Assembly: GCA_044868145.1 (NCBI GenBank)
Contig: JBIOWE010000006.1
Coordinates: forward strand, 284,537 to 348,536
Origin: Patescibacteria group bacterium
GTDB taxonomy: Bacteria > Patescibacteriota > Patescibacteriia > UBA10025 > JBIOWE01
DNA length: 64,000 bases
Direction of reading: 5' to 3'
Each line of letters opens with the position of its first letter. Position 1 is the stretch's first letter. Below, piece after piece: positions 18,671 through 60,582 of the stretch. The notes below the pieces were generated by a model. That model saw nothing but the letters and a program-made list of their open reading frames with translations. It was not told the DNA's origin and made no database searches. The position numbers were made by a program, and so were the translations under genes.

Positions 18671-19152
18671 ATTCGCGAGCGATAGATTTTCAATATTCTA
18701 TTGATAATATCAGTTGTCGAAAGTAATCTTTTTTGTTTTTTGATAAGAACAAGCTTTCCACCGTATTTTCGAACAGTTGGGGCTTCGACACAGTTTTTCC
18801 CATACTCACTGCTATTTACATGGATATTTGGCCGGACAGTCTCAAGAAAACGTGTTGGATTCGTTTCGGAAAAAACGTACAAATAATCGATGCATCGAAG
18901 CGACGCAAGTAATTTTACTCGCGATGCTTGAGGAATAATAGGTCGATCCTTGCCTTTATACTTTTTAATTGAACTATCACTATTTACTCCAACGATAAGC
19001 ACATCACCGAGTTTTTTGGCACGTTCCAACATGAACACGTGCCCATCATGTAAGATGTCAAAGCTCCCGTTTGTCGTTACGATACGCCTGCGTAATCGCT
19101 TCAAGTCCCTCACTCGTCTCTTTAATTGCTGCTTTGTTAAAATTTTAGCCAT
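18667..19152 (-). CDS. D-glycero-beta-D-manno-heptose 1-phosphate adenylyltransferase (RfaE/HldE domain II, stand-alone)
   Basis: Cytidylyltransferase-like TNGSFDILHDGHVFML motif. 161 aa. Confidence 0.8.
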   Translation of the reverse strand: MAKILTKQQLKRRVRDLKRLRRRIVTTNGSFDILHDGHVFMLERAKKLGDVLIVGVNSDSSIKKYKGKDRPIIPQASRVKLLASLRCIDYLYVFSETNPTRFLETVRPNIHVNSSEYGKNCVEAPTVRKYGGKLVLIKKQKRLLSTTDIINRILKIYRSRI

Positions 19153-19678
19153 GCTGTTTTATCCAAAGACTCGCATCGTAAAGATTTGTTGCTCGATAAT
19201 CTGGGCTCACCTCGTATTGATTGTCCTTTCCCGCTTTACCAGTTTTGACAAGAATCGTCCTGCACCCAAGTAGTGAACCTGCGCGTATATCTTCCGTTTT
19301 ATCACCTATCACAAATGAGGCTTTCGTATCAATCACAAATTCACGTATTGCTTTTTTATAATTTTTTAGTTTCGGCTTTCGACATGTACAATGGGCAGAA
19401 GGCTTATGGGGGCACATGTATTCGGCGTGGATTCGTACACCCTTCGATTTCAAGAAACTTAAAAAATGATTCGTAAACTGCCTATAGTCTCGCAAGGTGT
19501 AATACCCTCGACCGATACCCGATTGATTACTTACGATGATCAACAAATACTTAAAGTCTTGCAATAGTCTCAAGCCACGAACGGCGTTCGGGAGGAACCG
19601 GAGATTCTGTTTCCTATACACATATCCAAAATCAACGTTGATGGTGCCATCACGGTCCATGAAGACTGCACGCCTCAT
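19145..19678 (-). CDS. gmhB: D,D-heptose 1,7-bisphosphate phosphatase (HAD superfamily)
   Basis: FMDRDGTIN HAD motif I. Zinc-binding CPHKPSAHCTCRKP insertion typical of GmhB. Confidence 0.8.
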   Translation of the reverse strand: MRRAVFMDRDGTINVDFGYVYRKQNLRFLPNAVRGLRLLQDFKYLLIIVSNQSGIGRGYYTLRDYRQFTNHFLSFLKSKGVRIHAEYMCPHKPSAHCTCRKPKLKNYKKAIREFVIDTKASFVIGDKTEDIRAGSLLGCRTILVKTGKAGKDNQYEVSPDYRATNLYDASLWIKQHG

Positions 19679-20673
19679 CGACGTATAAACTCAGCCAGTT
19701 CTTTTGTTGAGACCGTTGCCGTCCCTACTTTTTCGATACTTAATTTTGCCGCGATAGAGGCTAAATATGAAACTTCGTAGGGAGTAAGATCGTTGATACC
19801 CATGGCAATAATGGCCGCTACAGTGTCACCGGCACCCGAGACGTCAACCACCTTTTCTGCAAATGATGGTAAATGATACATTCTCTTTTGCTCGTCATAT
19901 AAATCCATTCCTTGGGCGCCACGTGTTACTAAGACATTCCGTATCTTTAAATTCTTTTTTAATTTCCGAATGAGTTGAGGAATTTTTGTATCTGGTACGG
20001 TTTCAAAGAAGCCAAACATGCGCGAAAGTTCAATGTCGTTCGGCGTAATAAAATCAACTCCCAAATACAATTCCGTATGCTCTGGTTTCGGATCAACAAC
20101 AATGGGCACTCGATACGTTTTTTCGACTTCCATAAGCGTTGTCATGACGCGACTGGTAATAACACCTTTGTTATAATCGGAGACCAAAATCGAATCCACC
20201 TTGGGGGCGACCCTTTTGATATACTGGATAAGGTTGTTCTCGATTGTCTTGTTAATTGTGATGGAAGTTTCTTCATCAACTCTGACAATTTGCTGACCCT
20301 GAGAAAGAACACGCATTTTAAGCGTCGTTGGCCTGCTGTGATCAAAAATGACGCCTTCAAGCGGCATCTTACTCTTTTTTAGCGTTTCCAAAAAACTCCT
20401 TCCGAAATCGTCATGCTTATTATGATCGCCAATAACGCCTGCCAAAATGGTAGAGCCCCCTAAAGCTTTAATATTCTCGGCACTGTTTGCCGCGCCACCG
20501 AGTTTGTAATACTTCCGTTGAGCGCGAACAATGATCACGGGAGCTTCTTGCGATACGGAGCGGGGCGGCCCCTCAATGTATAAATCGAGCATTAAATCAC
20601 CAACAACAAGAACTTTTTTCTTTCGGAAAAGTTGCAGTGAGCGAAGCAAGTGGTTTTTGAACGACCTCTGCAT
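19675..20673 (-). CDS. D-beta-D-heptose 7-phosphate kinase (RfaE/HldE domain I, PfkB carbohydrate kinase family)
   Basis: VLVVGDLMLDLY N-terminus. GAGDT anion-hole motif (DVSGAGDTVAA). Confidence 0.8.
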   Translation of the reverse strand: MQRSFKNHLLRSLQLFRKKKVLVVGDLMLDLYIEGPPRSVSQEAPVIIVRAQRKYYKLGGAANSAENIKALGGSTILAGVIGDHNKHDDFGRSFLETLKKSKMPLEGVIFDHSRPTTLKMRVLSQGQQIVRVDEETSITINKTIENNLIQYIKRVAPKVDSILVSDYNKGVITSRVMTTLMEVEKTYRVPIVVDPKPEHTELYLGVDFITPNDIELSRMFGFFETVPDTKIPQLIRKLKKNLKIRNVLVTRGAQGMDLYDEQKRMYHLPSFAEKVVDVSGAGDTVAAIIAMGINDLTPYEVSYLASIAAKLSIEKVGTATVSTKELAEFIRR

Positions 20674-20676
20674 GGT

Positions 20677-21273
20677 TTACTTCTTGTTAAATAGTTTTTG
20701 CTCCGCTAGCTCGCAGATGATGTGCAGAAGCGTAATGTGACCTTCTTGGATCCTCGGCGTGTCCGTGTGAGGGACTACCAAGGCAATGTCCAGATATTCA
20801 AGAATTTTCTTGCTCTTCAGTGATACAAGTCCAATTGTATGTAATTTTTTTTCTCGAGCCGTAATAAGCGCGCGAGCGATGTTTGTCGAATGACCATTTT
20901 TATCCAATGAAATGTCGCTTGTCGTCAGAACAAATAATATATCGCCCGGCTGGCCGAGAGCGTGGATTTGCTTATCAAACACAAAATCAAATCCGGAGTC
21001 GTTACCGATTGAAGTTAGTGCCGAACTATCCGTTGTCAACGCTATCGCCGGCAACGGTGGTCGCTCAATTTTATATCGATTCGTAAACTCGGCGGCAAAA
21101 TGCTGCGCGTCCGCAGCAGAGCCACCATTCCCACAAATAAGTATCTTATGCCCGGAACGGAGGCAATCCATAACGACATCAATCGCTCGTTCAATATCAG
21201 ACGTCATCGTTACGGCCATTTTAGTTTTCACCTTCGCACTCTCTTTCAGAAATTGTTCAATTCGTTCCTTCAT
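20677..21273 (-). CDS. gmhA: phosphoheptose isomerase (SIS domain)
   Basis: ILICGNGGSAADAQHFAAEF SIS motif. 198 aa. Confidence 0.85.
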   Translation of the reverse strand: MKERIEQFLKESAKVKTKMAVTMTSDIERAIDVVMDCLRSGHKILICGNGGSAADAQHFAAEFTNRYKIERPPLPAIALTTDSSALTSIGNDSGFDFVFDKQIHALGQPGDILFVLTTSDISLDKNGHSTNIARALITAREKKLHTIGLVSLKSKKILEYLDIALVVPHTDTPRIQEGHITLLHIICELAEQKLFNKK

Positions 21274-21282
21274 ATCAAAACG

Positions 21283-22389
21283 TTAATCATTGATCATCGT
21301 TTGAGCAACGGATAAAACGTCTGCAACAGTTATCTTTTCCATGGACTGCTCACGATCAATGTCTGGTATGTCACCTTTATGTACGTTAATCACTGGATTT
21401 GTACCTTTGTAAATATATCGGTTGCGTGGGCCATATGGCGCAAATCTCACTGGCGTGTTCGGACCAAATAAACCAAGCGTTGGTACACCTTGGGCGGCTG
21501 CGATATGAATTGGACCGCTATCATTTCCTATAAAAAGGTGAAATTTTGTCATAAGGTAAAAAAGTTCCTTTAATGTAAATTTTCCTGCAGCATTTATTAC
21601 ATTCGGGAGGTCTGCTGCAATCTTTTCGGATACCTGCTTGTCGCTCTGGGCTCCAACAACAATGAAAGTTGTGGGAAAGTCTTCTTGAAATCGTTCTATA
21701 AACGCCCGATAATTGGCCCAATTCCAGCGTCTTCCTTGTGCCGATCCGCCTGAACCAGGGGCAAAACCAATGAGTACCTTATCAATTAAATGATGTTTGC
21801 GTAATAAGTCATCAACCCCTCCCCTTTCGTGTCGTGAGAACCCAAGTGGTATCAGTCGCGAATAATCAGTATGGATTCCGATGGAGCGAGCTAGGTCAAG
21901 ATACGTTTGGACGACGTGTTGCTTATCATTGTAATGTACCTTCACGTCGTAAAGGATTGAGCGAACGCCGTGGCTAAACCCAATCGATCTTTTAGAAAAA
22001 AGAAATGTCAAAATTGCAGAAAGTCGAAAAAATGGTTCGAGGTCAAAGGCAAGGTCGTAATGATGAAAAAAAAGAAAAAAGGATGGGAGCCGGAAAAAGG
22101 TTAAAATGTGTACCGAAGTAATTATCGCATTATCGGTGTACACATCGCTATTTTTCTTTCTCGTGAGTACATCAATCCGAACAAAATCTCCGTATCTCTT
22201 TCGTATTGCATCAATTGTAGGAAGGGTCAGTACACTTTCGCCAATAGCCCATAGTTTGACAAAGAGTATCTTTCTCGGTTCAACCGCTTTGGTAGAATTG
22301 CGAACGAACTTGAGGGGATAAAACAAAAGGCAGAGTAGCCCCCCGATATACTTATCAATGAACTTTTGCAACGCGTTGACACTCATCAA
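21283..22389 (-). CDS. glycosyltransferase family 9 (second heptosyltransferase-like protein)
   Basis: C-terminal GNDSGPIHIAAAQGVPTLGLFGP GT9 signature. Confidence 0.7.
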   Translation of the reverse strand: MMSVNALQKFIDKYIGGLLCLLFYPLKFVRNSTKAVEPRKILFVKLWAIGESVLTLPTIDAIRKRYGDFVRIDVLTRKKNSDVYTDNAIITSVHILTFFRLPSFFLFFHHYDLAFDLEPFFRLSAILTFLFSKRSIGFSHGVRSILYDVKVHYNDKQHVVQTYLDLARSIGIHTDYSRLIPLGFSRHERGGVDDLLRKHHLIDKVLIGFAPGSGGSAQGRRWNWANYRAFIERFQEDFPTTFIVVGAQSDKQVSEKIAADLPNVINAAGKFTLKELFYLMTKFHLFIGNDSGPIHIAAAQGVPTLGLFGPNTPVRFAPYGPRNRYIYKGTNPVINVHKGDIPDIDREQSMEKITVADVLSVAQTMIND

Positions 22390-22739
22390 TGATCAGTCCT
22401 TTCATACTTTTTTTCTTTCTCGTTTACTTTGTCAAGTGCGATACGCCTCACAAGGCTGGTTATCTCCCGTTCGATAAATTCCAACTTAATGTAAATCCGA
22501 AACACCCCGTAAAACAAAACGATAATGGAGAAGTAAACCAGAGCGTCCACGCCTCGCCCCACGCCTACTGTGTTGGCTATTAGATCTGTAAATGCTGGCC
22601 ACCAGGTAAAAAAAACAATAATGGCCCAAACGAGGAACCACGCCGTTAAAGCCAATGGACTGATTGCCTTATTACGGTACTGCAAATATGCGCGTGATGC
22701 CGCAAAAAGCGCAAACAATGTTACAAGGATTTTAACCAT
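22386..22739 (-). CDS. DUF2304-like small membrane protein, as commonly found paired with GT2 genes
   Basis: 117 aa with two TM helices plus a charged C-terminal tail. Sits between the GT2 and GT9 genes. Confidence 0.45.
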   Translation of the reverse strand: MVKILVTLFALFAASRAYLQYRNKAISPLALTAWFLVWAIIVFFTWWPAFTDLIANTVGVGRGVDALVYFSIIVLFYGVFRIYIKLEFIEREITSLVRRIALDKVNEKEKKYERTDH

Positions 22740-36187: not shown

Positions 36188-36614
36188 CATACGCCAGATT
36201 ATTCTAACATTTTTTTCGACTTTCCGCAAGTATGGAAGAATCATCGCGAGCTTTGGGTCTCGTGGGTTCCCAAAGCGAGCGATACAAAAGATTTTGCGAA
36301 AAGCGTCGAAAAATACTTTTTTAAAAAGGGTTTTTCGAAATAAAAAAGCTGTCAGGAAAAAACAACGCATTGACGCGAATTATTCGCATAGAATCCTGAA
36401 TGAATCAGGACGAGGAGAGAGGTTCGGTCCCCGAAGGGACATTCTATACTTATAGCTCGATCTCCGTCATTGCCATTCCTAACAGCTTTTTTGCGACAAG
36501 CTTGATGATTGAAAGGGAGCATTCCGTATCTTTGATAGACGAAACACGTTTATCGACCAAAGATACGGGGAAAGGAAGTATTATCTTTTCCTTTCCCTGA
36601 TGAATGCCCGGATA

Positions 36615-36944
36615 TCATTTTCCCATCCTGTGGTCCACCATGAATGGGAATCGATATGATTCGGCCAGTTCTTTGAGAGCCTTCAAATTCTCTGGGCAAG
36701 GCGTGGAGTTTTGCATTTGGCATACTACCACGGCATCGTCCCCATAAACCTTGAATGGCCCTGCTTCCGGCAGTTTTGGCGTGCATTCAATAAACTGTAG
36801 CAGTGCAATGAGCGAACGATATGAAGCTTCAGTAGGCGTTACTGATAATTGATCGACCGCCTTAGATTCAATACCAAGTTCAGGGATGCTGAAGGTAGCA
36901 AGAAAAACCTTCTTACGCTGCATCGCAGCAAAGTAGCATTTCAT
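36615..36944 (-). CDS. hypothetical protein (109 aa)
   Basis: Strong RBS AAGGAGGG 6 nt upstream of the ATG. No recognizable domain. Confidence 0.4.
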   Translation of the reverse strand: MKCYFAAMQRKKVFLATFSIPELGIESKAVDQLSVTPTEASYRSLIALLQFIECTPKLPEAGPFKVYGDDAVVVCQMQNSTPCPENLKALKELAESYRFPFMVDHRMGK

Positions 36945-37070
36945 TGTGACCCTCCTTTCGATGAAAGGAACTATTTACCTTAGATTCAATAGATGGTTAT
37001 AGAATCTCAGGAAAATGGGAGAGGCGTGTCATTGCATATCGCAACATCGCGCCTCTCCAAATCTGATAGC

Positions 37071-37340
37071 TTACTGCCAGTACGCTCCGTTTGTCTCATG
37101 GAGTGTTGGTGGCTTGCGCTCAACACGCAGTAATTGGTAAAAATGTTCAGGTACTTTCTCTCCTTGTTGCTCCAACGCGCGTACAATTCTCACGGCGTTA
37201 TGGTAATTTGCTTCGCTTTCTCGCAAACTTTCGCTCTCGGTGAACCGTTCGAGTTGTTCCAATAGCCTCCCTTTCGGAACCCCGCTTGCAGAAAGCTTTT
37301 TCTTGAATTTCTTGATGACTACTTCTACAAGGTTCTCCAT
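37071..37340 (-). CDS. hypothetical small helical protein (~89 aa)
   Basis: GGAGG RBS 4 nt before the ATG at 37340 (MENLVEV); the ORF could alternatively start at 37358. Hairpin terminator downstream. Conserved leader motif upstream. Confidence 0.4.
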   Translation of the reverse strand: MENLVEVVIKKFKKKLSASGVPKGRLLEQLERFTESESLRESEANYHNAVRIVRALEQQGEKVPEHFYQLLRVERKPPTLHETNGAYWQ

Positions 37341-37377
37341 AAAGCCTCCAATGTTCAATGTGCAAAGTTTCTCCCTC

Positions 37378-37419
37378 TTCTGAACCTGCCAGCTTGTGAC
37401 TACCAGGCTCGGAAGAGAA
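37378..37419 (-). promoter_or_regulatory. conserved 5-prime leader motif, copy 1 (upstream of the 37071..37340 gene)
   Basis: Shares about 80% identity over ~41 nt with copy 2 (37937..37984). The pairwise consensus on the plus strand is GAACC.G..AGCTT.TGAC.ACCAGGCTC..AAGAG. Confidence 0.5.
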
Positions 37420-37455
37420 GCGGGTTTTGGAACCTACCCGCTGGAGGTAAAAGAG

Positions 37456-37896
37456 CTACGGACTGTGGTATGCGGCAAACGGACTGTAGAAATGAACCTG
37501 TAATATCTCAATGTCTCCGGAATGGTATTTATTCATTCTCTTAAACGTGTCATTCAACCGATCAACAAAGTGTCGACGGGTCTCACTACCTTCTTTTAGG
37601 CCTTTAAACTCGTAAAGGCCGCAGAGGTCCTTAACAAAATCAAGTTCGATGTAAAGGTTTGACAATCGTGCACTTGAGGTATCCATCGCCGTTCGCAATC
37701 GGATTAACACCGGGACCTCTGCCCTGTCTTGGAATGTAACACGCATTGTGGCGAAGTATTGTGGTGAGTAGTCTTCAAACTGTACTGCTATTGTCGAACC
37801 TCGTGCAGGCAGCAAAATATAGAGCATTATTGACATCAGTCCTGACACCAATAATGTTGACATTAACATACCCAGCCAACCTGACCATTTTTTCAT
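37456..37896 (-). CDS. hypothetical membrane-anchored protein (146 aa)
   Basis: N-terminal TM helix. RBS GAGGAGG before the ATG. Conserved leader motif upstream. Confidence 0.45.
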   Translation of the reverse strand: MKKWSGWLGMLMSTLLVSGLMSIMLYILLPARGSTIAVQFEDYSPQYFATMRVTFQDRAEVPVLIRLRTAMDTSSARLSNLYIELDFVKDLCGLYEFKGLKEGSETRRHFVDRLNDTFKRMNKYHSGDIEILQVHFYSPFAAYHSP

Positions 37897-37936
37897 TGAT
37901 CCTCCTCGTTAAATTTAATGAACTTTTTTGATTCTT

Positions 37937-37984
37937 TTTTGAACCCGTTAGCTTATGACCACCAGGCTCAAAAGAGAGGAAGAG
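37937..37984 (-). promoter_or_regulatory. conserved 5-prime leader motif, copy 2 (upstream of the 37456..37896 gene)
   Basis: See copy 1. Located ~40-90 nt upstream of the start codon. Confidence 0.5.
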
Positions 37985-38080
37985 CGCAGAGTGACGTTTG
38001 AGCATACCCTGAAGGTATCCTCTCATCTGCAGATTTTTGCTATGGCTCTCCGCAATAGTCATAGCGCTCTTCCAAGAATG

Positions 38081-38143
38081 AATAAAAAAGAACAAGGCGG
38101 ATAGTTGGACGTATACTTCTCGCCCGCAAGGTGCCTTGTTCTT
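38081..38143 (-). terminator. putative intrinsic terminator after the 38167..38490 gene
   Basis: 11-bp stem AAGAACAAGGC/GCCTTGTTCTT around a long loop, followed by a T-run on the minus strand (and an A-run upstream). Confidence 0.45.
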
Positions 38144-38166
38144 TTTGATTGTAAAGTACAAACTAC

Positions 38167-38490
38167 CTAGCCTTGCGCTCGCGCCTTGAGCGGGTCTTGT
38201 GGGAAACCTCGAGCGAAGTTCTTGAGCTGAAAGGCAAACTGCTTCCGTCCGCGGTTATTCATCTGCTTAGGCTCTATAGGCAGGTATCGAAGAACCATCT
38301 TGTCCTCGCCGCTCAACTCCGTCACACTACAACCCATAAGCACTGATACAGCTACAGAAAACCCTTTGCGCAGATACAGCTCAGGGAAAACTCGCTTGCG
38401 GTACTCCCAGTCTGACTCGCCATCTTGCCTCGGAATACCAAGGCCCTCGAGGTTTCGCGTCAGGGCGTCTCCTTCATAGAAACTCGACAT
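38167..38490 (-). CDS. hypothetical protein (107 aa)
   Basis: RBS GGAGGTG before the ATG. Hairpin in the 5-prime UTR. Terminator downstream. Confidence 0.45.
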   Translation of the reverse strand: MSSFYEGDALTRNLEGLGIPRQDGESDWEYRKRVFPELYLRKGFSVAVSVLMGCSVTELSGEDKMVLRYLPIEPKQMNNRGRKQFAFQLKNFARGFPQDPLKARAQG

Positions 38491-38635
38491 TGTACACCTC
38501 CATTGATTTTCAAAGTCTCATATTATAAATCCGCTAGCATTTCTAACGAACTTGTAAATGAGGGGAACCGGAAGATATGTTGTGCATACTCCAGATTAAG
38601 GTTCCCCGATAGTATGTGATGAGTCAAATAGCTGA

Positions 38636-38833
38636 CTATTTTCCAAGATTGCTAAGAGCTATCGAAGCTAGAAAGAATGTGCAAGGAGCAATTAGCCAAT
38701 TAATTGACTCGGGCAGATTGGTTTGCCCCGTGAAGCCCCTGATTGCAGTGACCGATAGACAGCCGATCAGCAATATTATCCCAATAAACCAGAATCCCTT
38801 TGCTAAATCCTTCATCTCATCCTCCTTTGTCAA
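38636..38833 (-). CDS. hypothetical small two-TM membrane protein (59-65 aa)
   Basis: Two hydrophobic helices. A possible alternative start at the internal Met is preceded by AAGGAGG. Confidence 0.3.
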   Translation of the reverse strand: MTKEDEMKDLAKGFWFIGIILLIGCLSVTAIRGFTGQTNLPESINWLIAPCTFFLASIALSNLGK

Positions 38834-39544
38834 TGTATCCTTCCCTTCAGCCCATTATGTTGATAATAATGTGGCTCAAGGAAAGAGGGAAGGAGTGAAG
38901 GAGATTGTGCGGGTAGTACGTACATACGTTATGGTATGCGTACTGTTATAAACCGGCACGGCATCTACAGGGCCTTCCCCTCTTGAACTTGCTGATAAAG
39001 AACAGTTCGAGTAGTCAAGGACATTCGTCCTGGATAATTGCAATCTTTTTGCAAAAAGATTTTTTCATGCCCAATGGGCGCGTTCCTTTGGCAATGTTCC
39101 AAAGAAAGATCTGGAGGTGAGATGCTCGACCTAAGCCATACGGCCCTGCCGAGCGAAGAATGAATTGTAGTATACTCTTAGTTTACACCAAGAATAATTA
39201 CTTTTCATCCTTTTTATCTAACCCCTCCATATCCCACTTTGAAACAAAAAACGGATTGCTCGAGTAGAGAATCCGCCTTTTGTTAGCCGCCGGGATTTTC
39301 ATCGTCCGCGGCTCAACAATTGATTAATGCATTAAAGGCTTTTCAGCCTGCCCTTTTGTTCCTGTTCAGAGGCGCAAAAAGGCAAACCGTCTCTCTCGCT
39401 TTAAACCTTTTGATTGTTTTAAAAAACAAAATTAACAATACAGCATATACCTCTATGGTTTTCCTGTCAAGAGGGATATCCACATTGTATGGTTATTTTT
39501 GCGTTAAGCTAGCAAAAAAACATGTACATTTGAGTACAGGCACT

Positions 39545-39621
39545 TTGGGTAACCGCCAATCCTCAGATTGGCGGACCACGGTTTCCCACATTACGCCCGA
39601 TCTGAGGATCGGGTGTTACCC
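39545..39621. repeat. dual-hairpin structured element, copy A (outer stem GGGTAAC/GTTACCC; hairpin 1 CCGCCAAT-CCTCAG-ATTGGCGG; hairpin 2 CCCGATC-TGAG-GATCGGG)
   Basis: Read directly. A second copy at 51721..51787 has an identical hairpin 1, and compensatory substitutions in the outer stem and hairpin 2. Confidence 0.6.
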
Positions 39622-39630
39622 GCGAAAAAA

Positions 39631-41877
39631 CTACTGCCTTTCAATCAGTGCGGTGTATATTTGATCAGACGTGAGGTCAGCGGAAAACTTGAGCTGATTT
39701 TGAGAAGACTCCCCGCTTTGGCTCCACGCGAGCACGTATTGAGAGGGCAGTCGAAGGAACGAAACCAAGCCTGTCGGCGCAGAACCAGGCTGGCGTTGCA
39801 CGAGAAGAGAATAGGTATCAGTCGGGTGCGTCAAAAAACCCGTTCGTAAGCTAAACGGAAGTTTATAGGAAACTTCGACTGTTGCCTGCTGACCAGGACG
39901 CACAACAACCCAGTTGCCGAACACCGTTTTGCCAAATTCATGTGTTACGCGGGTTTGCGTTCGTTCATCGAGTGAAGGATTTTTCTCAATTGCCAAGAGA
40001 TCTTCGTCTTGCCCCGCATCAAGGTCAGGTTCTTTAAACCTGGATTGCGGAATGACGCTAAATCCTTGAGCGTCAATAAGCTCGCTGCCTTCGGGAACGT
40101 AGAATCGAACGTAGGAGACGTTATCAACGCCCGCAAAAGCATCATTCTTCGAACCGTTATGCACGCGTGTCAATTTAACTGTATCGATAATGGAGCCATC
40201 GTCAAGAACGCGAGCTTCATGGAGAATCAATTGTTGCATTGACGCGTCCGTTTTGCCGCCGCCAATGTTCGTCGTCACCACGGAAAGAAAATCTTTTTCA
40301 GCGGGCAGAATCGCCCCGGACCAACGAAGGTCCTCGATGCGCTGCTGCGTTTCTTGATTTTTGCTGAACAGCAGGAGGTCGCGCTGATCAAAGGAGGTGC
40401 TCAAAGCTCCTAACAAATCAACCAACTTATCAGGACTAACGGAGAAGAGCTTATTTAAAAGCACAGGCAGAAGATCAGCGATGAACGCTTTTGGCTCGCC
40501 ACTCTCTCGATGAGCGTCCGAATAGGATTGTGCGTACGCAACAAAATTTGATGCACTGATGACAGTGCCGTATGGGTCGCGCATATCAATGGACCCGGTT
40601 ACGTCAAGGAGGCGCTCAATAAATGTTGGTGTAAGCGCGATAACACCGTCAACGGACGGTCCGCCGCTTTTTTCGTAAAACCACATTACTTTTTTCGCGC
40701 TCGTAGGAAAATCCGGGAACCAATTCGCGTCTTGGATGTTCCAATACGGATTCACGAGGTGGAGCGGATTCGGGGACACAATCTTTTCAGGAAATTGGCC
40801 GGCGATGTCATAACTTCCGCCGCGTGGCACCTCAATCCTCTCTACTGCGCCCTGGTAAACGTCAATGAGCGCGAGGGAGCCGATAAACCCGCCCGTAGGC
40901 CGAAGCTCACGATTATTTTCAAAAAGCACCAAGTAACGTTGCTGCGTATGTGCGCCAAGCACCGAAAGAAGGGCCTGGGAAGCCTTTTCCAAATAACTGA
41001 AATTGTCCCGAAGGGCTGGCAGTACGCCGGCAAGCGTCTGGAACGTTTCGCGACTAGACTCCGGAATATCTTCAGGGCGAACCAGTGAAAGGTTATCGAT
41101 CGTCACGCGCACGTAATGTTCCAGCAGAGGCAAACGTTCGGTCAAAACCGAAAAGTCCCGTGTTACGGTTTCGTCGGAACCCGGGACGCGCGTATCAATG
41201 GCTTGCAACAAGCTCGCCAATTCCTCCCCTGCTTTACTCATATACTCTCCGGCGGTCAACAAATGCTCTGCGCTACGCGATTCGCTGGAAGCCGCCTTTA
41301 CGATATCAGTTGTGAGCCCGCCGAAGCTGCGGAATTCTTCTTGGGCTGCGACGAAGCCGTTCTTCGCCTGCTCAAAGGTTGATGAGGCTTTATCGTACTG
41401 CTGGGAGGCAATATACTGGGAGGCATCAATGAATTGACCGTATGCATCCGTGCTGGCGCCGAGTACCTTACCTTTCACTTCTTTGGCTTTTTGAATTGCC
41501 GAAACGACAAAAAACGGCACAAGCAATGCGCATAAGAGCAAAACAAACACCAGAAGATGTTTGAACCGGGGCGTAGACAACTTCCATGAAATGTCAGAAT
41601 GATTTTCTTTTCGTTTTTGACCTCCGCGCGGCCGCCGGTGCACAGGCGCGTCTTCTGCCGGCACGGTAAGGTGATGAATGGCTTTCCCCACTGTTTGCGT
41701 GCCCGCGCTAAAAAAGTTTTCCAACGCTGACTGGCGCACTGTCTGCTTCGGCTGCGAAGATTTGTCAGTCATTTTGCGAAGATTCAAAACATTTTCCTCG
41801 GGGACGCCAATCCCGGCGCGCGGCTTTTGAATACGCACGCTCCGTGAACCGTTTGTTTTGTGATTAGTCCGATTCAT
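39631..41877 (-). CDS. DUF4012-domain extracytoplasmic protein, membrane-anchored (cell-envelope polysaccharide locus protein)
   Basis: N-terminal basic region plus one TM helix. Core motif QRYLVLFENNRELRPTGGFIGSLALIDV, characteristic of DUF4012. 748 aa. Confidence 0.6.
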   Translation of the reverse strand: MNRTNHKTNGSRSVRIQKPRAGIGVPEENVLNLRKMTDKSSQPKQTVRQSALENFFSAGTQTVGKAIHHLTVPAEDAPVHRRPRGGQKRKENHSDISWKLSTPRFKHLLVFVLLLCALLVPFFVVSAIQKAKEVKGKVLGASTDAYGQFIDASQYIASQQYDKASSTFEQAKNGFVAAQEEFRSFGGLTTDIVKAASSESRSAEHLLTAGEYMSKAGEELASLLQAIDTRVPGSDETVTRDFSVLTERLPLLEHYVRVTIDNLSLVRPEDIPESSRETFQTLAGVLPALRDNFSYLEKASQALLSVLGAHTQQRYLVLFENNRELRPTGGFIGSLALIDVYQGAVERIEVPRGGSYDIAGQFPEKIVSPNPLHLVNPYWNIQDANWFPDFPTSAKKVMWFYEKSGGPSVDGVIALTPTFIERLLDVTGSIDMRDPYGTVISASNFVAYAQSYSDAHRESGEPKAFIADLLPVLLNKLFSVSPDKLVDLLGALSTSFDQRDLLLFSKNQETQQRIEDLRWSGAILPAEKDFLSVVTTNIGGGKTDASMQQLILHEARVLDDGSIIDTVKLTRVHNGSKNDAFAGVDNVSYVRFYVPEGSELIDAQGFSVIPQSRFKEPDLDAGQDEDLLAIEKNPSLDERTQTRVTHEFGKTVFGNWVVVRPGQQATVEVSYKLPFSLRTGFLTHPTDTYSLLVQRQPGSAPTGLVSFLRLPSQYVLAWSQSGESSQNQLKFSADLTSDQIYTALIERQ

Positions 41878-45901: not shown

Positions 45902-47293
45902 TTATGCCGCGGAACGAGCCAAGAAAACGACGAATGGTGTTTTCGCTAAAATTCGTAAATCGAACGCGAGGCTCCAGTTCTCAATATAGTAAATATCCAG
46001 TTTCGCTTCGTCTTCAAACTTTAGCTCCGATCGACCAGATATTTGCGCGAAGCCCGTCAGCCCGGGTTTAATGGTTAGCAACTTTTTGTGGCTCTTTTCA
46101 TACTTGTCCACCTCTTCCGGCTCATGCGGTCTTGGACCCACAAGACTCATCTCACCTTTTAGCACGTTAAAAAGCTGCGGCAACTCATCAAGACTTGATT
46201 TCCGCAGCAGTCGGCCGAATCGCGTGATGCGCGGATCATTTTTTATTTTAAATAGTGGGCCGTCGGATCGCTCGTTAAAATTTACCAGTTGCTTTTTGAG
46301 CGCATGCGCGTCTTTAATCATTGAACGAAATTTGTATAAGGTAAATCTATTGCCCCGCTCTCCCACGCGCTCGAGCTTTACGAAAATTGGTCCTTCGGAA
46401 TCAATGCGAATGAAGAGCGCTATCAAGAGAAAGATAGGCGTAAGAACCAAGAGCAAAAAGGAAGAAAAAACGAGATCAAAAATCCGCTTCAAGATTCGAC
46501 CCCATCCGTCAAGTTTGGTCCGTTTCACCTCAATCAATGGGATGTCGGCAATTGTGGTGACTTCAACGTTCGTTGCTTGAGTTTCGTACAGGTCGGCGGC
46601 GTATTTAAAAACAACATGATGCTCATCGCAAAAACCTTTGATTTGTAACATCTGCTGTTTGGAAAGAGCGGGGTCGGCCACAATGACTTCATCGACCGGC
46701 TGGAGCTTCATGCGCTCCTTCAGCGTGGTAATCGTTGCATCATCGACAGTAGAAAAACGGTCAATAACCTTGTACCCATAGGACGAATTGCGATGCAAGA
46801 TGGTAAGAACGTTTTCCGTTATTTCATCGTTCCCAATGATAATCACTTGATGACTGCCCACGCCTCTTCGCAAAAGCGCGTGCTGCACCAATCGTATTGC
46901 AAGCCGTCCAAGACTAACGAGTACAATAGAAAAAATCCAGCCGGCGATGATGATAAAACGAGAAGAGAAAAGCTCTCGTTGGAAGAAAATGACCAGAACT
47001 ACGACCGTAATGCTTGCCGTGCATGCGATGAAGATTTTTCCGAGTTCAATATTTCGCTTGCCAAACGAGTGAGCCGCATACAAACCTGAAATCGCGAAAA
47101 TACTCAAAAAAATCACTCCAACAACAAGAGTGATCCGCAAAAATTCTGAGAACGCAATATCATAGAAAACCGGACGAATGCCGGTTACTATCGGGGTAAA
47201 CCGCAGACTATATGCTGCAATGCCGGCGAGGAGAACCATGCAAAAATCGATCGGTACGAGAATTGCCGTAAAAAATAATTCAGATTTCTTCAT
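45902..47293 (-). CDS. initiating polyprenyl-phosphate sugar phosphotransferase (bacterial sugar transferase family, WbaP/ExoY/CpsE-like)
   Basis: N-terminal TM helices. C-terminal catalytic domain motifs (RFTLYKFRSM, DELPQLFNVLKGEMSLVGPRP). The start is set at MKKSELFF; the 5-prime ORF extension to 47632 is antisense to rnpB and rejected. Confidence 0.8.
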   Translation of the reverse strand: MKKSELFFTAILVPIDFCMVLLAGIAAYSLRFTPIVTGIRPVFYDIAFSEFLRITLVVGVIFLSIFAISGLYAAHSFGKRNIELGKIFIACTASITVVVLVIFFQRELFSSRFIIIAGWIFSIVLVSLGRLAIRLVQHALLRRGVGSHQVIIIGNDEITENVLTILHRNSSYGYKVIDRFSTVDDATITTLKERMKLQPVDEVIVADPALSKQQMLQIKGFCDEHHVVFKYAADLYETQATNVEVTTIADIPLIEVKRTKLDGWGRILKRIFDLVFSSFLLLVLTPIFLLIALFIRIDSEGPIFVKLERVGERGNRFTLYKFRSMIKDAHALKKQLVNFNERSDGPLFKIKNDPRITRFGRLLRKSSLDELPQLFNVLKGEMSLVGPRPHEPEEVDKYEKSHKKLLTIKPGLTGFAQISGRSELKFEDEAKLDIYYIENWSLAFDLRILAKTPFVVFLARSAA

Positions 47294-47344
47294 AATACTG
47301 CTTACCCCTTTGTATGTGTAAAGGGGGTGCTGGAAAAACGTTAA

Positions 47345-47753
47345 TGCCAAGGTAAGCCTGTAAGCCGAATTCTGTTCTCCTACTTGCAAGCAAGCGGAAG
47401 AGATAATTATCTCTCTGGGACCGCCATTGCTGGCGGCCTCTAGCGCCCGTTCGGGCTTGCACCGGAGAGGGTTTTCCACGCTCCTATCTCGCGATAGGTG
47501 CGCGTGAGCTCTTACCTCACGATTTCGCCATTGCCTGATCCCACCTCGTCGGCGGGCCATTGGCTGTGTATTTTCTGTTGCACTTTCCCTGGGCTTCAAT
47601 GCTTTACAGTTCTCGAGAGATCCGCAAAGCACCTACTCCCGGTCGCCGTTAGCGACTCTCCACTTCTCGCCTCGTCGGCGAGGGTGTTCGGACTTTCCTC
47701 CCCACCTTCCCCTTGCGGAAAAAGGCGAAGCAATTATCCAACTTACCTTGGCA
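47345..47753 (-). ncRNA. rnpB: RNase P RNA, bacterial type A
   Basis: The minus-strand sequence contains GGGGAGGAAAGUCCGAACACC (P4 5-prime strand), AGUGCAACAGAAAA, GGGAUCAGGCAAUGGCGAAAUCGUGAGGUAAGAGCUCACGCGCACC and ACAGAAUUCGGCUUA (P4 3-prime strand). P1 forms by pairing of CCAAGGUAAG with CUUACCUUGG. About 408 nt. Confidence 0.85.
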
Positions 47754-48480: not shown

Positions 48481-48897
48481 TTACCGAGAACTCATCTGCT
48501 TGTCAAGCTCCTTATTCACGAGTTTGTCGGCTTCTTTATTTTTTTCTCGAGGAATCACACGGAAATCAACGCGCCTGAATCCAATCATCATATTCCAGCA
48601 TTTGACGAATAAGGAACCGAGCTCAACGTTTTTTATCTTGGCCTGACGCGAGAGCTGTGTCGCGATAAGCTCGCTGTCCACATAAAAATCAAGTTCACTT
48701 GCTTTCAAGCGCTTCGCCTGCTCCAGCCCAAATAAAACGGCATGATATTCAGCTTGGTTATTCGTCGCCTCGCCGATGTATTTTGAATAAGAGCCAACAA
48801 GAGTATTGCCATTCCAAATTACTACGCCAACGGCAGCTGGGCCGGGGTTTCCACGTGCGCCACCGTCAGTATAAATCTCAAGTTTTTTATTTTCCAT
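48481..48897 (-). CDS. rnhA: ribonuclease HI
   Basis: IYTDGGARGNPGPAA, NNQAEYHAVLFGL, and the DSELI and EKNKEAD catalytic motifs. 138 aa. Confidence 0.85.
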   Translation of the reverse strand: MENKKLEIYTDGGARGNPGPAAVGVVIWNGNTLVGSYSKYIGEATNNQAEYHAVLFGLEQAKRLKASELDFYVDSELIATQLSRQAKIKNVELGSLFVKCWNMMIGFRRVDFRVIPREKNKEADKLVNKELDKQMSSR

Positions 48898-57436: not shown

Positions 57437-59026
57437 TTAGTTCGCCAGAAGGGGTTGCCCGGTCATTTCTGGCGGTTTCGGTAAATGCATTTTCTCCAAG
57501 ATAGTCACCGTGACGTCGGACAAAACGCCCGCGGGCTGGAGCAAACTTAAATCGTGCGCCATGATCATATCTTTGAACGGGGTAACACCTTCTAAATCCT
57601 TGCTGACAGCAATAAAGGGCACAGGATTAACGCTGTGCTCTTTATCCATGACGCCGGTTTGAACATTCAAAAGCTCTTCCGCGTTGCCGTGGTCGGAGGT
57701 AATAAACGCAATGCCGTCGAATTGCAACGTCGCGTCCACTATTTGCCCGACGCATTCGTCAACAACTTCGATTGCCTTGAGCGTCGCTTGAATGTTGCCG
57801 GTGTGAGCCACCATGTCCGGGTTCGCGAAGTTGACGACGATAAATCCGTATTTGCCTTTTTTCATTTCCTTAATTAAGCGATCGGTGATTTCGTAAGCGC
57901 CCATTTCAGGTTTTTGGTCGTAGGATGAAACGCTGGGGGAAGGAATGAGCACGTTGTCCTGGTCGTCAAATGGCTTCTCCCGGCCGCCGTTCAAGAAATA
58001 GGTGACGTGCGCATACTTTTCCGTTTCTGCGATATGTAATTGCGCAATCTTTGCCTGCGCAATCACCCATGCGAGCGGTTGCTCGATGTATTGCGGCTTG
58101 AACGCGACGATTACCGGTAAGTCTCTATCGTATTCGGTCATCGTCACGAAAAACAAATTACGCATGTAGGTCGCGCGCGGAAATTTCTCGAATCCGGGAA
58201 GGATAAAAGCTTTCGTCAATTGGCGCGAGCGGTCGGGACGAAAATTGAAAAAAATCACCGCGTCCCCGTCTTGTACGGTTGCGACCGGCTTGCCGCCCTC
58301 CTGAATAACGGTTGGTAAAAACTCCTCATCGAAGTTTTGCTGAGCATACGATTTTTCGATCGCATGCAACGGGTTTGCGTCAACACGGTCGCCGACGCCA
58401 TCCACCATTGCTCGGTACGCTTTTTCTTCACGATCCCAACGATTATCTCGATCCATCGCGTAGTACCGACCAACAAGCGTAGCAATTTTTCCAACTTTTA
58501 CCTGCTTTATCTTCGTATTCAATTTCTGTACGAAATTGACTCCGCTCTGCCGAGGCGCGTCTCTACCGTCGAGTATCGCATGGATTGCCACGCGCGAAAG
58601 TTTTTGCTTCTTGCAGAATTCCAGCAAAGCGAACAAATGCTCGAGAGAGCTGTGGACGCCGCCCGCGCTCAACAACCCAATAAGATGCAGGGTGGATTTT
58701 CGTTTCCGCGCATGATTCGCGGCTTGCAAAAAAGCTTCATTCTCAAAAAACGATCCATCAGTGACAGAACGGGAGATCCGGGGCAGATCCTGGTAAACAA
58801 TTTTCCCCGCGCCGAGGTTCAAGTGACCCACCTCGGAATTTCCCATTTCTCCCCACGGAAGTCCGACTGCTTCGCCTGAGGCGTGCAGCGTCATGGTTGG
58901 ATAGCGATCAATCAGGCTATCGATGTATTCCGTATTGGCCACGGAAAGAGGATTGCCCTTTGAAGGAGGCGCGATGCCCCACCCGTCAAGAATAATCAAT
59001 ACCGTTGGTTTTACGACTTTTGGCAT
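57437..59026 (-). CDS. gpmI: 2,3-bisphosphoglycerate-independent phosphoglycerate mutase
   Basis: ILDGWG N-terminus. Catalytic Ser motif GNSEVGHLN. DGRD, SDHGN and DMVAH metal-binding motifs. 529 aa. Confidence 0.9.
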   Translation of the reverse strand: MPKVVKPTVLIILDGWGIAPPSKGNPLSVANTEYIDSLIDRYPTMTLHASGEAVGLPWGEMGNSEVGHLNLGAGKIVYQDLPRISRSVTDGSFFENEAFLQAANHARKRKSTLHLIGLLSAGGVHSSLEHLFALLEFCKKQKLSRVAIHAILDGRDAPRQSGVNFVQKLNTKIKQVKVGKIATLVGRYYAMDRDNRWDREEKAYRAMVDGVGDRVDANPLHAIEKSYAQQNFDEEFLPTVIQEGGKPVATVQDGDAVIFFNFRPDRSRQLTKAFILPGFEKFPRATYMRNLFFVTMTEYDRDLPVIVAFKPQYIEQPLAWVIAQAKIAQLHIAETEKYAHVTYFLNGGREKPFDDQDNVLIPSPSVSSYDQKPEMGAYEITDRLIKEMKKGKYGFIVVNFANPDMVAHTGNIQATLKAIEVVDECVGQIVDATLQFDGIAFITSDHGNAEELLNVQTGVMDKEHSVNPVPFIAVSKDLEGVTPFKDMIMAHDLSLLQPAGVLSDVTVTILEKMHLPKPPEMTGQPLLAN

Positions 59027-60582
59027 AGGTTCGTCTTTCGCATAACGGACGGCGGATCAATGCCCATGAGCGATAAAATTGTTGGCGCGACGTCCGCGAG
59101 AATGCCGTGCCGTTTCAATCGCACGTTGCGGAATCGCTTTGAGATGACGAAAAACGGTACTGGATTCATGGAGTGCTTCGTTTCAATTTCGTCGCTATCA
59201 GCATAAAGCATCTGCTCGATATTTCCATGGTCAGCAGTCAAGATGATTGTCCCGCCTTTCGCGTTTGTGGCCGGCACAACTTGTTTCAAGTAAGAATCAA
59301 CGTACTCGCACGCTTTCACCGCAGCCTTGAGATTACCACTATGGCCAATCATATCCAGGTTCGGATAGTTCACAAGGATAAAATCATGCATTTTGCTTTG
59401 AATCGCCTTCAGCAGCGTGCGGGTCAACTTTGCGCCACTCATTTGCGGAACTTGATCATACGATTGGACGGAAGGCGATTTAATCATAATACGCTCTTCT
59501 CCCGCGACTGGCTGCGCATAGCCGCCGTTAAAAAAATACGTGACATGCGCAAACTTCTCCGATTCTGAAATGAACAATTGGCGCCTGCCGGAGAGCACAA
59601 TCGGTAAACTTTTTTCAACGCGCACGCTGGGAAAGGCGCAGAGGATGTTCGGCAGATCTGGGCCAACTTCCGTCAATGTCACGAATAAAAAATTTTTCAA
59701 TATTTTTTTTCGCGCGAATCCGGCAAATGTCTTCTTATCCTGCGTGAACGCTTTTGTGAGTTGGCGCACGCGGTCGGACCGCAAATTAAAGAAAATAGCT
59801 GCATCGTTGTCCGCAATGCGTGGAAAAATTCGACTGTTATGGCGCAAGACGGTTGGCGTTAAATACTCGTCACTTTCTCCACGGTTATACCCGCGAACAA
59901 TTGCTTTCTCCACGTTGCCGGCGCGCAAGCCCTCACCAAGCACAAGCGCGTCGTACGCTTGCCTCGTGCGTGACCACTCTTTAATCCGGTCCATCGCATA
60001 ATACCGGCCCATCACTGTCCCGATTTTGTAATCACTCGGCAAGATACGGCTGAATTTTCTAAGTGTTGCGACGGAAGCGTACTTCGGCGCGTCGCGACCG
60101 TCCGTGAACAAGTGCAAATACGCATTCTTCACGCCGGAGACCCGAGCCAGCGAAATCAGTGCAAGCAGGTGGTCCGGATCCGCATGCGCGCTTTGGTCGC
60201 CGGTAAAGAGCCCTATCAAATGCAAATTCGATTTGTATTTCTTCACGTGCATGATGGCGGCATGGAGCGCTGCGTTCTTAAAAAATGTTCCATCGTTTAT
60301 GCTGTGGGAAATCCGCATCGCGTCCTGTTCAACTATCCGCCCGGCGCCAATATTCAAATGCCCGGCTTCGGAGTTCCCTGCTTGATTTACCGGCAAACCA
60401 ACTGCTCTCCCCGATGCCTCCAAGAGCGCGAAGGGATGACGTTCGAACAATGAATCAAGAAAGGGTGTTTTTGCTTGTGTAAAGGGGTTGCCGCGCTTCT
60501 CTTTTGTATAGCCCCAACCGTCAAGAATAACAAGAACGAACGGTTTTTTAGTACGGCCACTTTTTTTCATACGAGTTCCCAC
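59011..60582 (-). CDS. gpmI: second 2,3-bisphosphoglycerate-independent phosphoglycerate mutase paralog
   Basis: ILDGWG, GNSEAGHLN, DGRD, ADHGN and DMIGH motifs, all intact. Overlaps the downstream paralog by 16 nt. Confidence 0.85.
   Translation of the reverse strand: MGTRMKKSGRTKKPFVLVILDGWGYTKEKRGNPFTQAKTPFLDSLFERHPFALLEASGRAVGLPVNQAGNSEAGHLNIGAGRIVEQDAMRISHSINDGTFFKNAALHAAIMHVKKYKSNLHLIGLFTGDQSAHADPDHLLALISLARVSGVKNAYLHLFTDGRDAPKYASVATLRKFSRILPSDYKIGTVMGRYYAMDRIKEWSRTRQAYDALVLGEGLRAGNVEKAIVRGYNRGESDEYLTPTVLRHNSRIFPRIADNDAAIFFNLRSDRVRQLTKAFTQDKKTFAGFARKKILKNFLFVTLTEVGPDLPNILCAFPSVRVEKSLPIVLSGRRQLFISESEKFAHVTYFFNGGYAQPVAGEERIMIKSPSVQSYDQVPQMSGAKLTRTLLKAIQSKMHDFILVNYPNLDMIGHSGNLKAAVKACEYVDSYLKQVVPATNAKGGTIILTADHGNIEQMLYADSDEIETKHSMNPVPFFVISKRFRNVRLKRHGILADVAPTILSLMGIDPPSVMRKTNLCQKS

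Follow-up and report, generated by a model that had tools for sequence, protein, structure and literature searches.

In the early and late mRNAs of phage T7, hairpins between cistrons are processed by RNase III; in integrons it is the bottom strand that recombines; and repetitive extragenic palindromes (REPs) are scattered over whole genomes in hundreds of copies, which face either way, often form inverted pairs, and have a GT[AG]G head and a Y1 transposase (the REP-associated tyrosine transposase, RAYT). In the hyperplastic regions of T4-type phages, promoter early stem-loops (PeSL), small terminator/promoter cassettes, lie between ORFans, and recombination shuffles the genes (Arbiol et al. 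2010, PMC2839356; Comeau et al. 2014, PMC4122927). Here we describe a hairpin, B, that recurs at gene junctions in a variable island between a DUF4012 gene and murJ, both in a 64,000-nt stretch of a Patescibacteria group bacterium (contig JBIOWE010000006.1; this whole stretch is called the window) and in related genomes. The best reading of the data is a hypervariable array of independently acquired small genes, fixed between the DUF4012 gene and murJ in Kerfeldbacteria-like bacteria of the candidate phyla radiation (CPR), in which B is a generic junction element and not a regulator site specific to the two genes beside which it was first noticed.

Among described systems, the PeSL of T4-type phages is the closest counterpart of the B junction module. 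Each is a short, conserved intergenic module that separates the stop codon of a small ORFan from the next Shine-Dalgarno sequence (SD) and start codon, and each lies in a hypervariable region where insertions, deletions or replacements between close relatives are bounded by the module. The terminator-like stem-loop of the PeSL, with its G-tract and C-tract, probably corresponds to a hairpin that precedes B at 30 of 33 junctions (hairpin A). The conserved part differs: it is a consensus sigma-70 promoter (−35, −10 and AT-rich upstream sequence) in the PeSL, whereas here it is a covarying second hairpin with no recognisable promoter. The setting differs too, with several hyperplastic regions in the phages and one fixed locus on a CPR chromosome here.

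Three other systems invite comparison. With attC sites, including attC clusters lacking an integrase (CALIN), the locus shares small co-oriented ORFan cassettes, a single kind of imperfect junction hairpin, a structure that is conserved while sequence and top length vary, homogeneity of copies within a genome, and strain-variable cassettes; unlike those sites, B has no R''/R' cores, its coding strand folds, no IntI was found among the window ORFs checked or in the relatives' loci, and it is hairpin A that moves with the cassette, B keeping its position. The T7 RNase III hairpins are likewise repeated, related and intercistronic, and form about two helical turns of double-stranded RNA (dsRNA) with an internal mismatch or loop on the sense strand. 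The modelled B fits RNase III-type geometry, with about 20–22 bp of dsRNA and an internal loop between cistrons on the sense strand; however, the T7 sites are all part of a single long transcript, are not preceded by terminator-like hairpins and have no sequence similarity to B. Like REPs and bacterial interspersed mosaic elements (BIMEs), B resembles a 35–55-nt extragenic imperfect palindrome with a conserved mismatch, located after genes and a candidate for a role in mRNA stability, but in the ~242 kb searched it shows neither their dispersal nor their occurrence in both orientations, and it lacks the GT[AG]G head and, among the window ORFs checked, a Y1 transposase.

A covarying hairpin in the window and its relatives

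B came to notice as a block shared by the 5' leaders of two adjacent small genes, which encode proteins of 89 and 146 aa (Table 1). The preliminary description placed this block 40–90 nt upstream of each start codon, in otherwise unrelated surroundings, and both statements agree with our measurements. Exactly two plus-strand matches to its consensus exist in the window, 37382–37417 and 37941–37976, even when three mismatches are allowed; none is expected by chance, and none of 100 shuffles of the 64 kb contained one. The pair can be extended to 44-nt direct copies of 80% identity, which start 78 and 81 nt ahead of the two ATG codons and end 35 and 38 nt ahead of them, and the flanks of the two copies (W1 and W2) do not align, SD sequences excepted. 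W1 and W2 differ at nine positions, all of them transitions when the sequences are read side by side. A diversity-generating retroelement was considered and rejected, as these transitions run in both directions and are not adenine-specific. In gene direction, W1 reads CUUCUCUUC-C-GAGCCUG-G-UAGU-CACAA-GCUG-G-CAGGUUC-A-GAAGAGGG. The plus strand of the two copies folds poorly (z = −1.3 and −1.5) because several of the pairs are G.U. The folds predicted for both leaders also include pairing between the SD and a CU-rich stretch upstream.

The 89-aa and 146-aa proteins matched only themselves among 5.8 billion proteins, and relatives were therefore reached through the synteny of MurJ, which is 60–68% identical to the MurJ of metagenome-assembled genomes labelled "Patescibacteria group" and "Candidatus Kerfeldbacteria". 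Each is represented by roughly 20 kb of sequence surrounding murJ (L024/L025, L026, L027/L028, L029, L030, L031, L032 and L033/L034). The order GT4 genes, DUF4012 gene, variable stretch, murJ, lepA is kept in nine related sequences. In the window, which corresponds to Logan contig SRR30692719_277997, the island is part of a large cell-envelope polysaccharide locus, with murJ and lepA on one side. The variable stretch of the relatives measures from 2 to more than 10 kb and holds small ORFs without Pfam domains, plus one Na/Ca-exchanger gene (L028). Each relative's island has its own repeated hairpins. A second repeat family was also seen in the relatives' islands, AGAAAAGGAGGRCUAGA followed by ~140 nt, in two to three copies per island (L026 4628–4664, 7765–7801 and 8855–8891; L024 7576–7714 and 8615–8759); it resembles the beginning of a short conserved ORF, and the window lacks it.

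When folded, the repeated hairpins of the relatives and the blocks of the window reveal one common architecture, a stem-loop of ~52 nt in the window. The lower stem has 8 bp, with a pyrimidine-rich 5' strand (YCUCUUYC) and a purine-rich 3' strand (GAARAGRG). It is followed by a 1x1 internal loop, C.A in 22 of 28 unique copies and replaced by U-A in the other six, and by an upper stem that starts [C/G]AGC...G[C/U]U[G/C], in which the AGC/GCU core is invariant. The top varies from a few nt to more than 50 nt, so that whole elements measure 48–113 nt, and the 3' flank is GGGAA. The 8 lower pairs and 12–14 upper pairs around the conserved C.A loop give a full helix of 20–24 pairs, about two helical turns.

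The preliminary description proposed aligning related leaders for covariation as a check, and this was carried out through the syntenic MurJ relatives. For the alignment of 21 copies that includes W1 and W2 (A3), RNAalifold predicts the hairpin with compensatory changes at 13 of 15 pairs. Under our own 20-pair structure, 92.7% of the pair cells in A3 are paired, against 72.0% in shuffles and 42–50% with slid partners; the observed fraction was reached by 0 of 500 shuffles, and at 17 of the 20 pairs both partners change. In a further alignment (A7), made of 24 copies and free of window sequence, 94.1% of the cells were paired and again both partners changed at 17 of 20 pairs. Many of the aligned copies share one genome and are hence not independent, but the compensatory changes still separate at least six genomes. 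The B hairpin is under selection for its structure.

The two strands are not equivalent. Over the 28 unique sense copies, the pair cells comprise 419 Watson-Crick, 75 G.U, 16 C.A and 23 other combinations, and R1, a model seeded with A3, scores its sense matches about twice as high as their reverse complements. The excess of G.U over C.A cells indicates that it is the gene-sense strand that folds, either as a transcript or as single-stranded DNA (ssDNA) of that strand.

R1 was run on 177 kb and then on a further 65 kb, ~242 kb in all, on both strands. Every significant match lies on the gene-sense strand inside a DUF4012–murJ island; the other matches were lower-scoring reverse-strand echoes of the same hairpins. 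About 35 copies were found in this way, all in one orientation and at one locus, between unrelated small ORFs, and copies resemble each other more within a genome than between genomes. Genomes outside the seed were matched as well (L024, L031, L032 and L033/L034), among others at L024 7857–7911 with 58 bits, L032 6092–6146 and 8054–8108 with 60–61 bits, and L033 8114–8161 with 39.5 bits; further copies beyond the seed were three in L031 and those at L026 6625–6717 and 8170–8262. In the window, R1 gave W1 47.6 bits, W2 42.4 bits and a third hairpin, W3, 16.4 bits (E = 0.17). R2, a second model built without window sequences, ranked W1 at the top of the entire window (20.8 bits, E = 0.005). W1 is thus an independently significant member of the B family, and W3 is a candidate only. 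A scan with RNA models had also been suggested. R1 finds the family in the islands, but no family of Rfam 15 matches B: at the gathering threshold RNase P was the sole match in the window, and at permissive E-values the islands of the window and of L026 yielded nothing beyond noise.

Junctions and cassette exchange

B mostly lies 28–72 nt past the upstream stop codon and mostly 19–63 nt ahead of the next SD and start codon, in other cases up to 238 nt. Its relation to hairpin A is tighter: in 30 of 33 copies, the end of A falls within ±4 nt of B. Since these 30 copies abut A while the distance to the start codon ranges over 19–238 nt, B is attached to the 3' end of the upstream unit. Hairpin A is cassette-specific, GC-rich and terminator-like, typically GGGAG..loop..CUCCC with 8–13 bp, and the 59 nt upstream of B have a mean minimum free energy (MFE) of −16.8 kcal/mol, against −9.1 kcal/mol for random windows of the same loci. 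Not every junction has B: the one after the 89-aa ORF has hairpin A only, and the 107-aa ORF has no B upstream. The latter ORF is followed by a canonical terminator-like hairpin with a U-run, so W2 is not simply within a read-through intercistronic gap. Gene callers report two ORFs that run across B, one of 76 aa over W2 (window 37775–38005, minus strand) and one of 77 aa in L029 (8800–9033); both are probably spurious, because the B hairpin covaries.

Table 1 Features of the variable island in the window; positions count from the first nucleotide of the window
Feature	Position	Strand	Remarks
Whole variable island	36371..39630	−	3.3 kb, between the DUF4012 gene (39631–41877) and murJ (34583 to ~36190)
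B hairpin, copy W1	37370..37421	−	First copy of the preliminary description, core 37375–37418; MFE −26.4 kcal/mol, z = −3.6
B hairpin, copy W2	37929..37980	−	Second copy of the preliminary description, core 37934–37977; MFE −19.2 kcal/mol, z = −4.1
Possible divergent third B hairpin, W3	38836..38888	−	From a regex scan; predicted fold −24.1 kcal/mol; no adjacent hairpin A
Hairpin A at W1 (AGCGGGU-loop-ACCCGCU)	37419..37442	−	Abuts W1; begins 13 nt past the stop of the 146-aa ORF
Hairpin A upstream of W2	37985..38031	−	Ends 4 nt before W2; −18.9 kcal/mol
Junction with hairpin A only, after the 89-aa ORF	37018..37058	−	GGAGAGGCG...CGCCUCUCC hairpin, then CAUUUUCC; no B hairpin; read from the sequence
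Canonical terminator-like hairpin with U-run (GCCUUGUUCUUUUUUAUU)	38081..38150	−	After the 107-aa ORF; 18-nt arms, 94% complementary
109-aa ORF	36615..36944	−	No B hairpin; truncated homologue of the 235-aa ORF of L028
89-aa ORFan	37071..37340	−	Downstream of W1; start ATG 37340 behind GGAGG, not TTG 37358
146-aa ORFan	37456..37896	−	Downstream of W2; N-terminal hydrophobic segment; ATG 37896 behind GAGGAGG
107-aa ORFan	38167..38490	−	No B hairpin upstream
59-aa small membrane ORF	38636..38815	−	Downstream of W3; SD AAGGAGG

The small proteins of the islands have little in common. In an all-against-all blastp comparison across all islands they were mutually unrelated, except between near-identical strains and for two weak pairs, and a paralogous tandem gene family was on this ground rejected as the source of the repeat. 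For the five small ORFs of the window island, Pfam gave nothing significant, and NCBIfam, PHROG and PADLOC gave no match. The 109-aa ORF aligns with the 235-aa ORF of the L028 island (1627–2334) at 39% identity over 106 aa (blastp); by eye it resembles an RNase H-like fold, for which Pfam gave no match. An exact 14-nt direct repeat, CCTTAGATTCAATA on the plus strand, lies at 36861–36874 and 36978–36991, in the 109-aa ORF and in its upstream leader. The start of the 59-aa membrane ORF follows W3 at a distance of 20–25 nt.

Exchange of these genes can be followed between close relatives. L030 and L031 have identical MurJ proteins and flanks of 96.6% and 99.8% identity, yet 7181–8161 of L030 is replaced by 6996–7589 of L031 between two B hairpins; the ORFs of the two segments, 172 and 157 aa long, are unrelated. 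The two sequences are homologous up to the 3' end of the left B and again from the first base of the right B onwards. A similar pattern was found between L024 and L026, in which shared and unshared blocks begin at B hairpins. L030 in addition contains a 374-nt tandem duplication that includes A and B.

Readings of the B hairpin

We hold with moderate confidence that B is the conserved half of an A + B junction module, one that acts in the transcript and also supplies homology for cassette swaps. The strand asymmetry suggests that B would act in the sense transcript. Its CU-rich 5' strand may serve as the pyrimidine tail of hairpin A, which would be why this strand is pyrimidine-rich in every genome; in L032, and only there, it is a true U5–U7 run after hairpin A. 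In read-through or longer transcripts the complete B helix, with its AGC/GCU core and C.A mismatch, would become a recognition site. The partner may be a general RNA-binding or RNA-processing factor, which would insulate, process or stabilise the neighbouring cistrons by analogy with the intercistronic RNase III hairpins of phage T7. B is the sole sequence common to all cassettes, and for this reason it would also be portable homology for swaps, as the PeSL is in T4-type phages.

Several points weigh against this reading. A hairpin in ssDNA of the same strand would give an equal strand asymmetry, and that asymmetry is the one observation that points to action at the RNA level. If hairpin A terminates efficiently, transcription of B needs a promoter of its own, and no properly spaced sigma-70 boxes were found upstream of, within or after B. 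The clean cassette swap was seen in one strain pair only. The window copies form a divergent subtype, GAGCC..GGUUC rather than CAGCG..UGCUG, and R2 gives W2 10.7 bits and W3 12.1 bits, neither significant alone; W2 is counted in the family because of its 80% identity to W1 together with the same architecture and context. Restriction to one locus refers to the 64-kb window and, for each genome, to the ~20 kb that surround murJ.

The main rival, and the more novel outcome, is that B is a dedicated site-specific recombination site that folds in ssDNA or as a cruciform, within an integron-like system whose recombinase is encoded elsewhere; cassettes made of leader, ORF and hairpin A would be excised and inserted by recombination of B with B. 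We regard this as possible but rather unlikely. The array indeed has an integron-like architecture, with small, co-oriented, mutually unrelated ORFans, one family of structured repeats at the junctions in constant orientation, and content that varies between strains. The structure is kept while the hairpin top varies in length, copies are homogeneous within a genome as are the Vibrio cholerae repeats (VCRs) of Vibrio, the replacement between L030 and L031 is bounded exactly by B, and the invariant core beside the C.A mismatch resembles a protein recognition site. However, the core pair RYYYAAC/GTTRRRY is missing from the base of the hairpin, where the window has TCTGAAC on the plus strand and no GTT in the other arm. 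There is no pattern of extrahelical bases, the 1x1 C.A being the sole conserved irregularity, and it is the coding (top) strand that folds, whereas integrons recombine the bottom strand. No integrase, transposase or recombinase domain was found in the window ORFs checked with Pfam, all of them outside 19145–22739, or among the genes called in nine related loci. The swap itself is explained equally well by homologous recombination between 55-nt repeats. A bolder version makes the DUF4012–murJ island a new, integron-independent cassette system, in which the AGC/GCU core and the C.A mismatch let B be recognised, either by host enzymes of Xer or HUH type or by a recombinase whose gene lies elsewhere, and small ORFans are captured and shuffled downstream of cell-envelope polysaccharide genes; this we consider unlikely.

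The preliminary description took the shared block for the binding site of a common regulator, or else for a small cis-acting RNA element, that ties the genes of the island into one regulon. That B is a real, selected cis element holds good, and of the two options the RNA fits better, given the covariation and the fold of the sense strand. The AGC and GCU half-sites are separated by a hairpin top of widely varying length, which makes an operator in duplex DNA unlikely. A single specific trans-acting regulator, either a protein or a small RNA (sRNA), would be consistent with the gene-proximal position and fixed orientation of B, with its invariant core and conserved mismatch, with its frequent location 26–63 nt upstream of an SD and start codon, and with the predicted pairing of the SD to the CU-rich stretch in both window leaders. 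On the other side, B is tied to the upstream hairpin A and not to the start codon that follows, the genes behind it are ORFans without mutual relationship and vary from strain to strain, and the 107-aa and 109-aa genes of the window island lack it. A regulon of the two genes is not supported, because B is generic to the array junctions across related genomes, where the same hairpin stands at the junctions of dozens of unrelated ORFs in nine related sequences; a specific regulator of the island seems to us doubtful.

It is improbable that the downstream cassette gene has its promoter in B, or that B itself is this promoter, which would make B a true terminator-promoter composite of the PeSL type. 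B does lie in the place of a promoter, between a terminator-like hairpin and an SD, the 3' arm of many copies holds TTGCTG, and a TTGA[ACG]A box follows 1–12 nt after B in ~12 of 33 copies. Against this, most copies have no −10 box 16–18 nt from either candidate −35 box, several end 19–32 nt before the ATG and leave no room, the window copies lack TTGCTG, and selection acts on base pairing and not on hexamers. The lineage moreover has an ordinary sigma-70-like promoter before murJ (TTGACG-N17/18-TAGAAT).

Least probable of all is a selfish repeat of the REP type or of the type of miniature inverted-repeat transposable elements (MITEs), or a remnant of local duplication, with no function of its own: B is a short palindromic repeat in extragenic space, its copies are homogenised within a genome and the tandem duplication of L030 takes in A and B, but in 242 kb about 35 of 35 copies have a single orientation and lie at a single locus, genomes with a MurJ no more than 60–68% identical to that of the window keep the architecture through compensatory changes, similarity within the window is limited to the hairpin with flanks and ORFs unrelated, there is no GTAG or other GT[AG]G head, no signature of terminal inverted repeats or target-site duplications (TIR/TSD) and, among the window ORFs checked, no Y1 transposase, and the flanks, with hairpin A or CC at the 5' end and GGGAA at the 3' end, do not duplicate one another. 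The dispersed, MITE-like repeat without gene-proximal bias against which the preliminary description was to be judged was thus not encountered in the ~242 kb searched; position and orientation are strictly gene-proximal.

A number of other candidates were tried and rejected. B is not an intrinsic terminator, because no U-run follows it, unlike the real U-run terminator nearby; GGGAA or other purines follow, and the terminator scan does not call B. A sigma-54 promoter was excluded, since the spacing of GG to GC in CTGGTAGTCACAAGCT is one base short of TGGCAC-N5-TTGC. As for a phage origin, there was no PHROG or PADLOC match, and three B-type patterns on viral contigs amounted to two chance matches of 10–13 bits. 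The pattern AGCTTNTGACNACCAGGCTC had 6 matches in GTDB genomes, 15 in JGI metagenomes and none in IMG/VR, all with unrelated flanks, a number within the ~17 genome-collection matches expected by chance (hand estimate). The likeness of the CACAAG loop of W1 to a 69-nt repeat of L024 is coincidental, as that repeat is an A-type hairpin. Upstream mini-ORFs that use the GA-rich 3' strand as SD occur in ~5 of 33 copies and are not general.

Neighbouring features and significance

Between the island and murJ lies a second conserved structured element of 137–154 nt, at 36342–36492 (minus strand) in the window and at L024 9128–9281, L026 9245–9384, L028 7724–7861, L030 9683–9819 and L032 9727–9863 in the relatives, with an MFE of −42 to −61 kcal/mol. 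It has a closing stem of 16–18 bp (AAAAAAGCUGUCGAC...GUCGGCAGCUUUUUU), a 3' U-run, a conserved unpaired CU-rich loop (AAUCUCUCUCCUC) and, in its 5' half, the sigma-70-like sequence TTGACG-N17/18-TAGAAT. Thirteen of its 36 predicted pairs are compensatory, and it has no Rfam match. The element may be a large terminator, with an embedded murJ promoter, for transcripts that arrive from the island, or a new non-coding RNA or leader. The listed murJ ORF (595 aa, from 36370) is over-extended, as homologues start about 60 codons later, near 36190.

At the other end of the island, a long hairpin (39547–39621) stands right after the stop codon of the DUF4012 gene, with 25-nt arms that are 84% complementary, a 25-nt loop and no U-run. 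The 0.7 kb that follow it (38900–39630) hold no convincing ORF, and the region after the DUF4012 gene in the relatives, 72–75% conserved over 340–800 nt, likewise has no large ORF.

Farther away, two tandem paralogues of cofactor-independent phosphoglycerate mutase (57437–59026 and 59011–60582, minus strand) lie beside the genes for enolase and phosphoglycerate kinase (PGK). There is also a stand-alone RNase H/RVT_3 gene (48481–48897, minus strand), and an RNase P RNA of class A (47345–47749, minus strand) runs over the 5' end of an ORF given as 45902–47632. The first part of the window (1–23000) has a G+C content of 0.33–0.44, against 0.45–0.57 elsewhere, and encodes a sugar-modification and glycosyltransferase cluster with DegT aminotransferases, hexapeptide transferases, a Wzx-like flippase, methyltransferases and GT9; it may be a horizontally exchanged surface-polysaccharide module.

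CPR bacteria (Patescibacteria) have tiny genomes and few known regulatory or mobile-element systems. The locus described here places, at a fixed site in a cell-envelope biosynthesis locus, a strain-variable array of small membrane or secreted ORFans whose junction hairpin matches no described RNA family or recombination site. For annotation, it warns that ORFs called across the B hairpin are probably spurious. The models R1 and R2 provide a searchable marker for such arrays, and B points to fast-evolving small proteins that may mediate host interaction. If B is an RNA processing or insulation signal, it would open a first access to the post-transcriptional organisation of these episymbionts, which are uncultured; as a recombination site, it would represent a new way of capturing genes.

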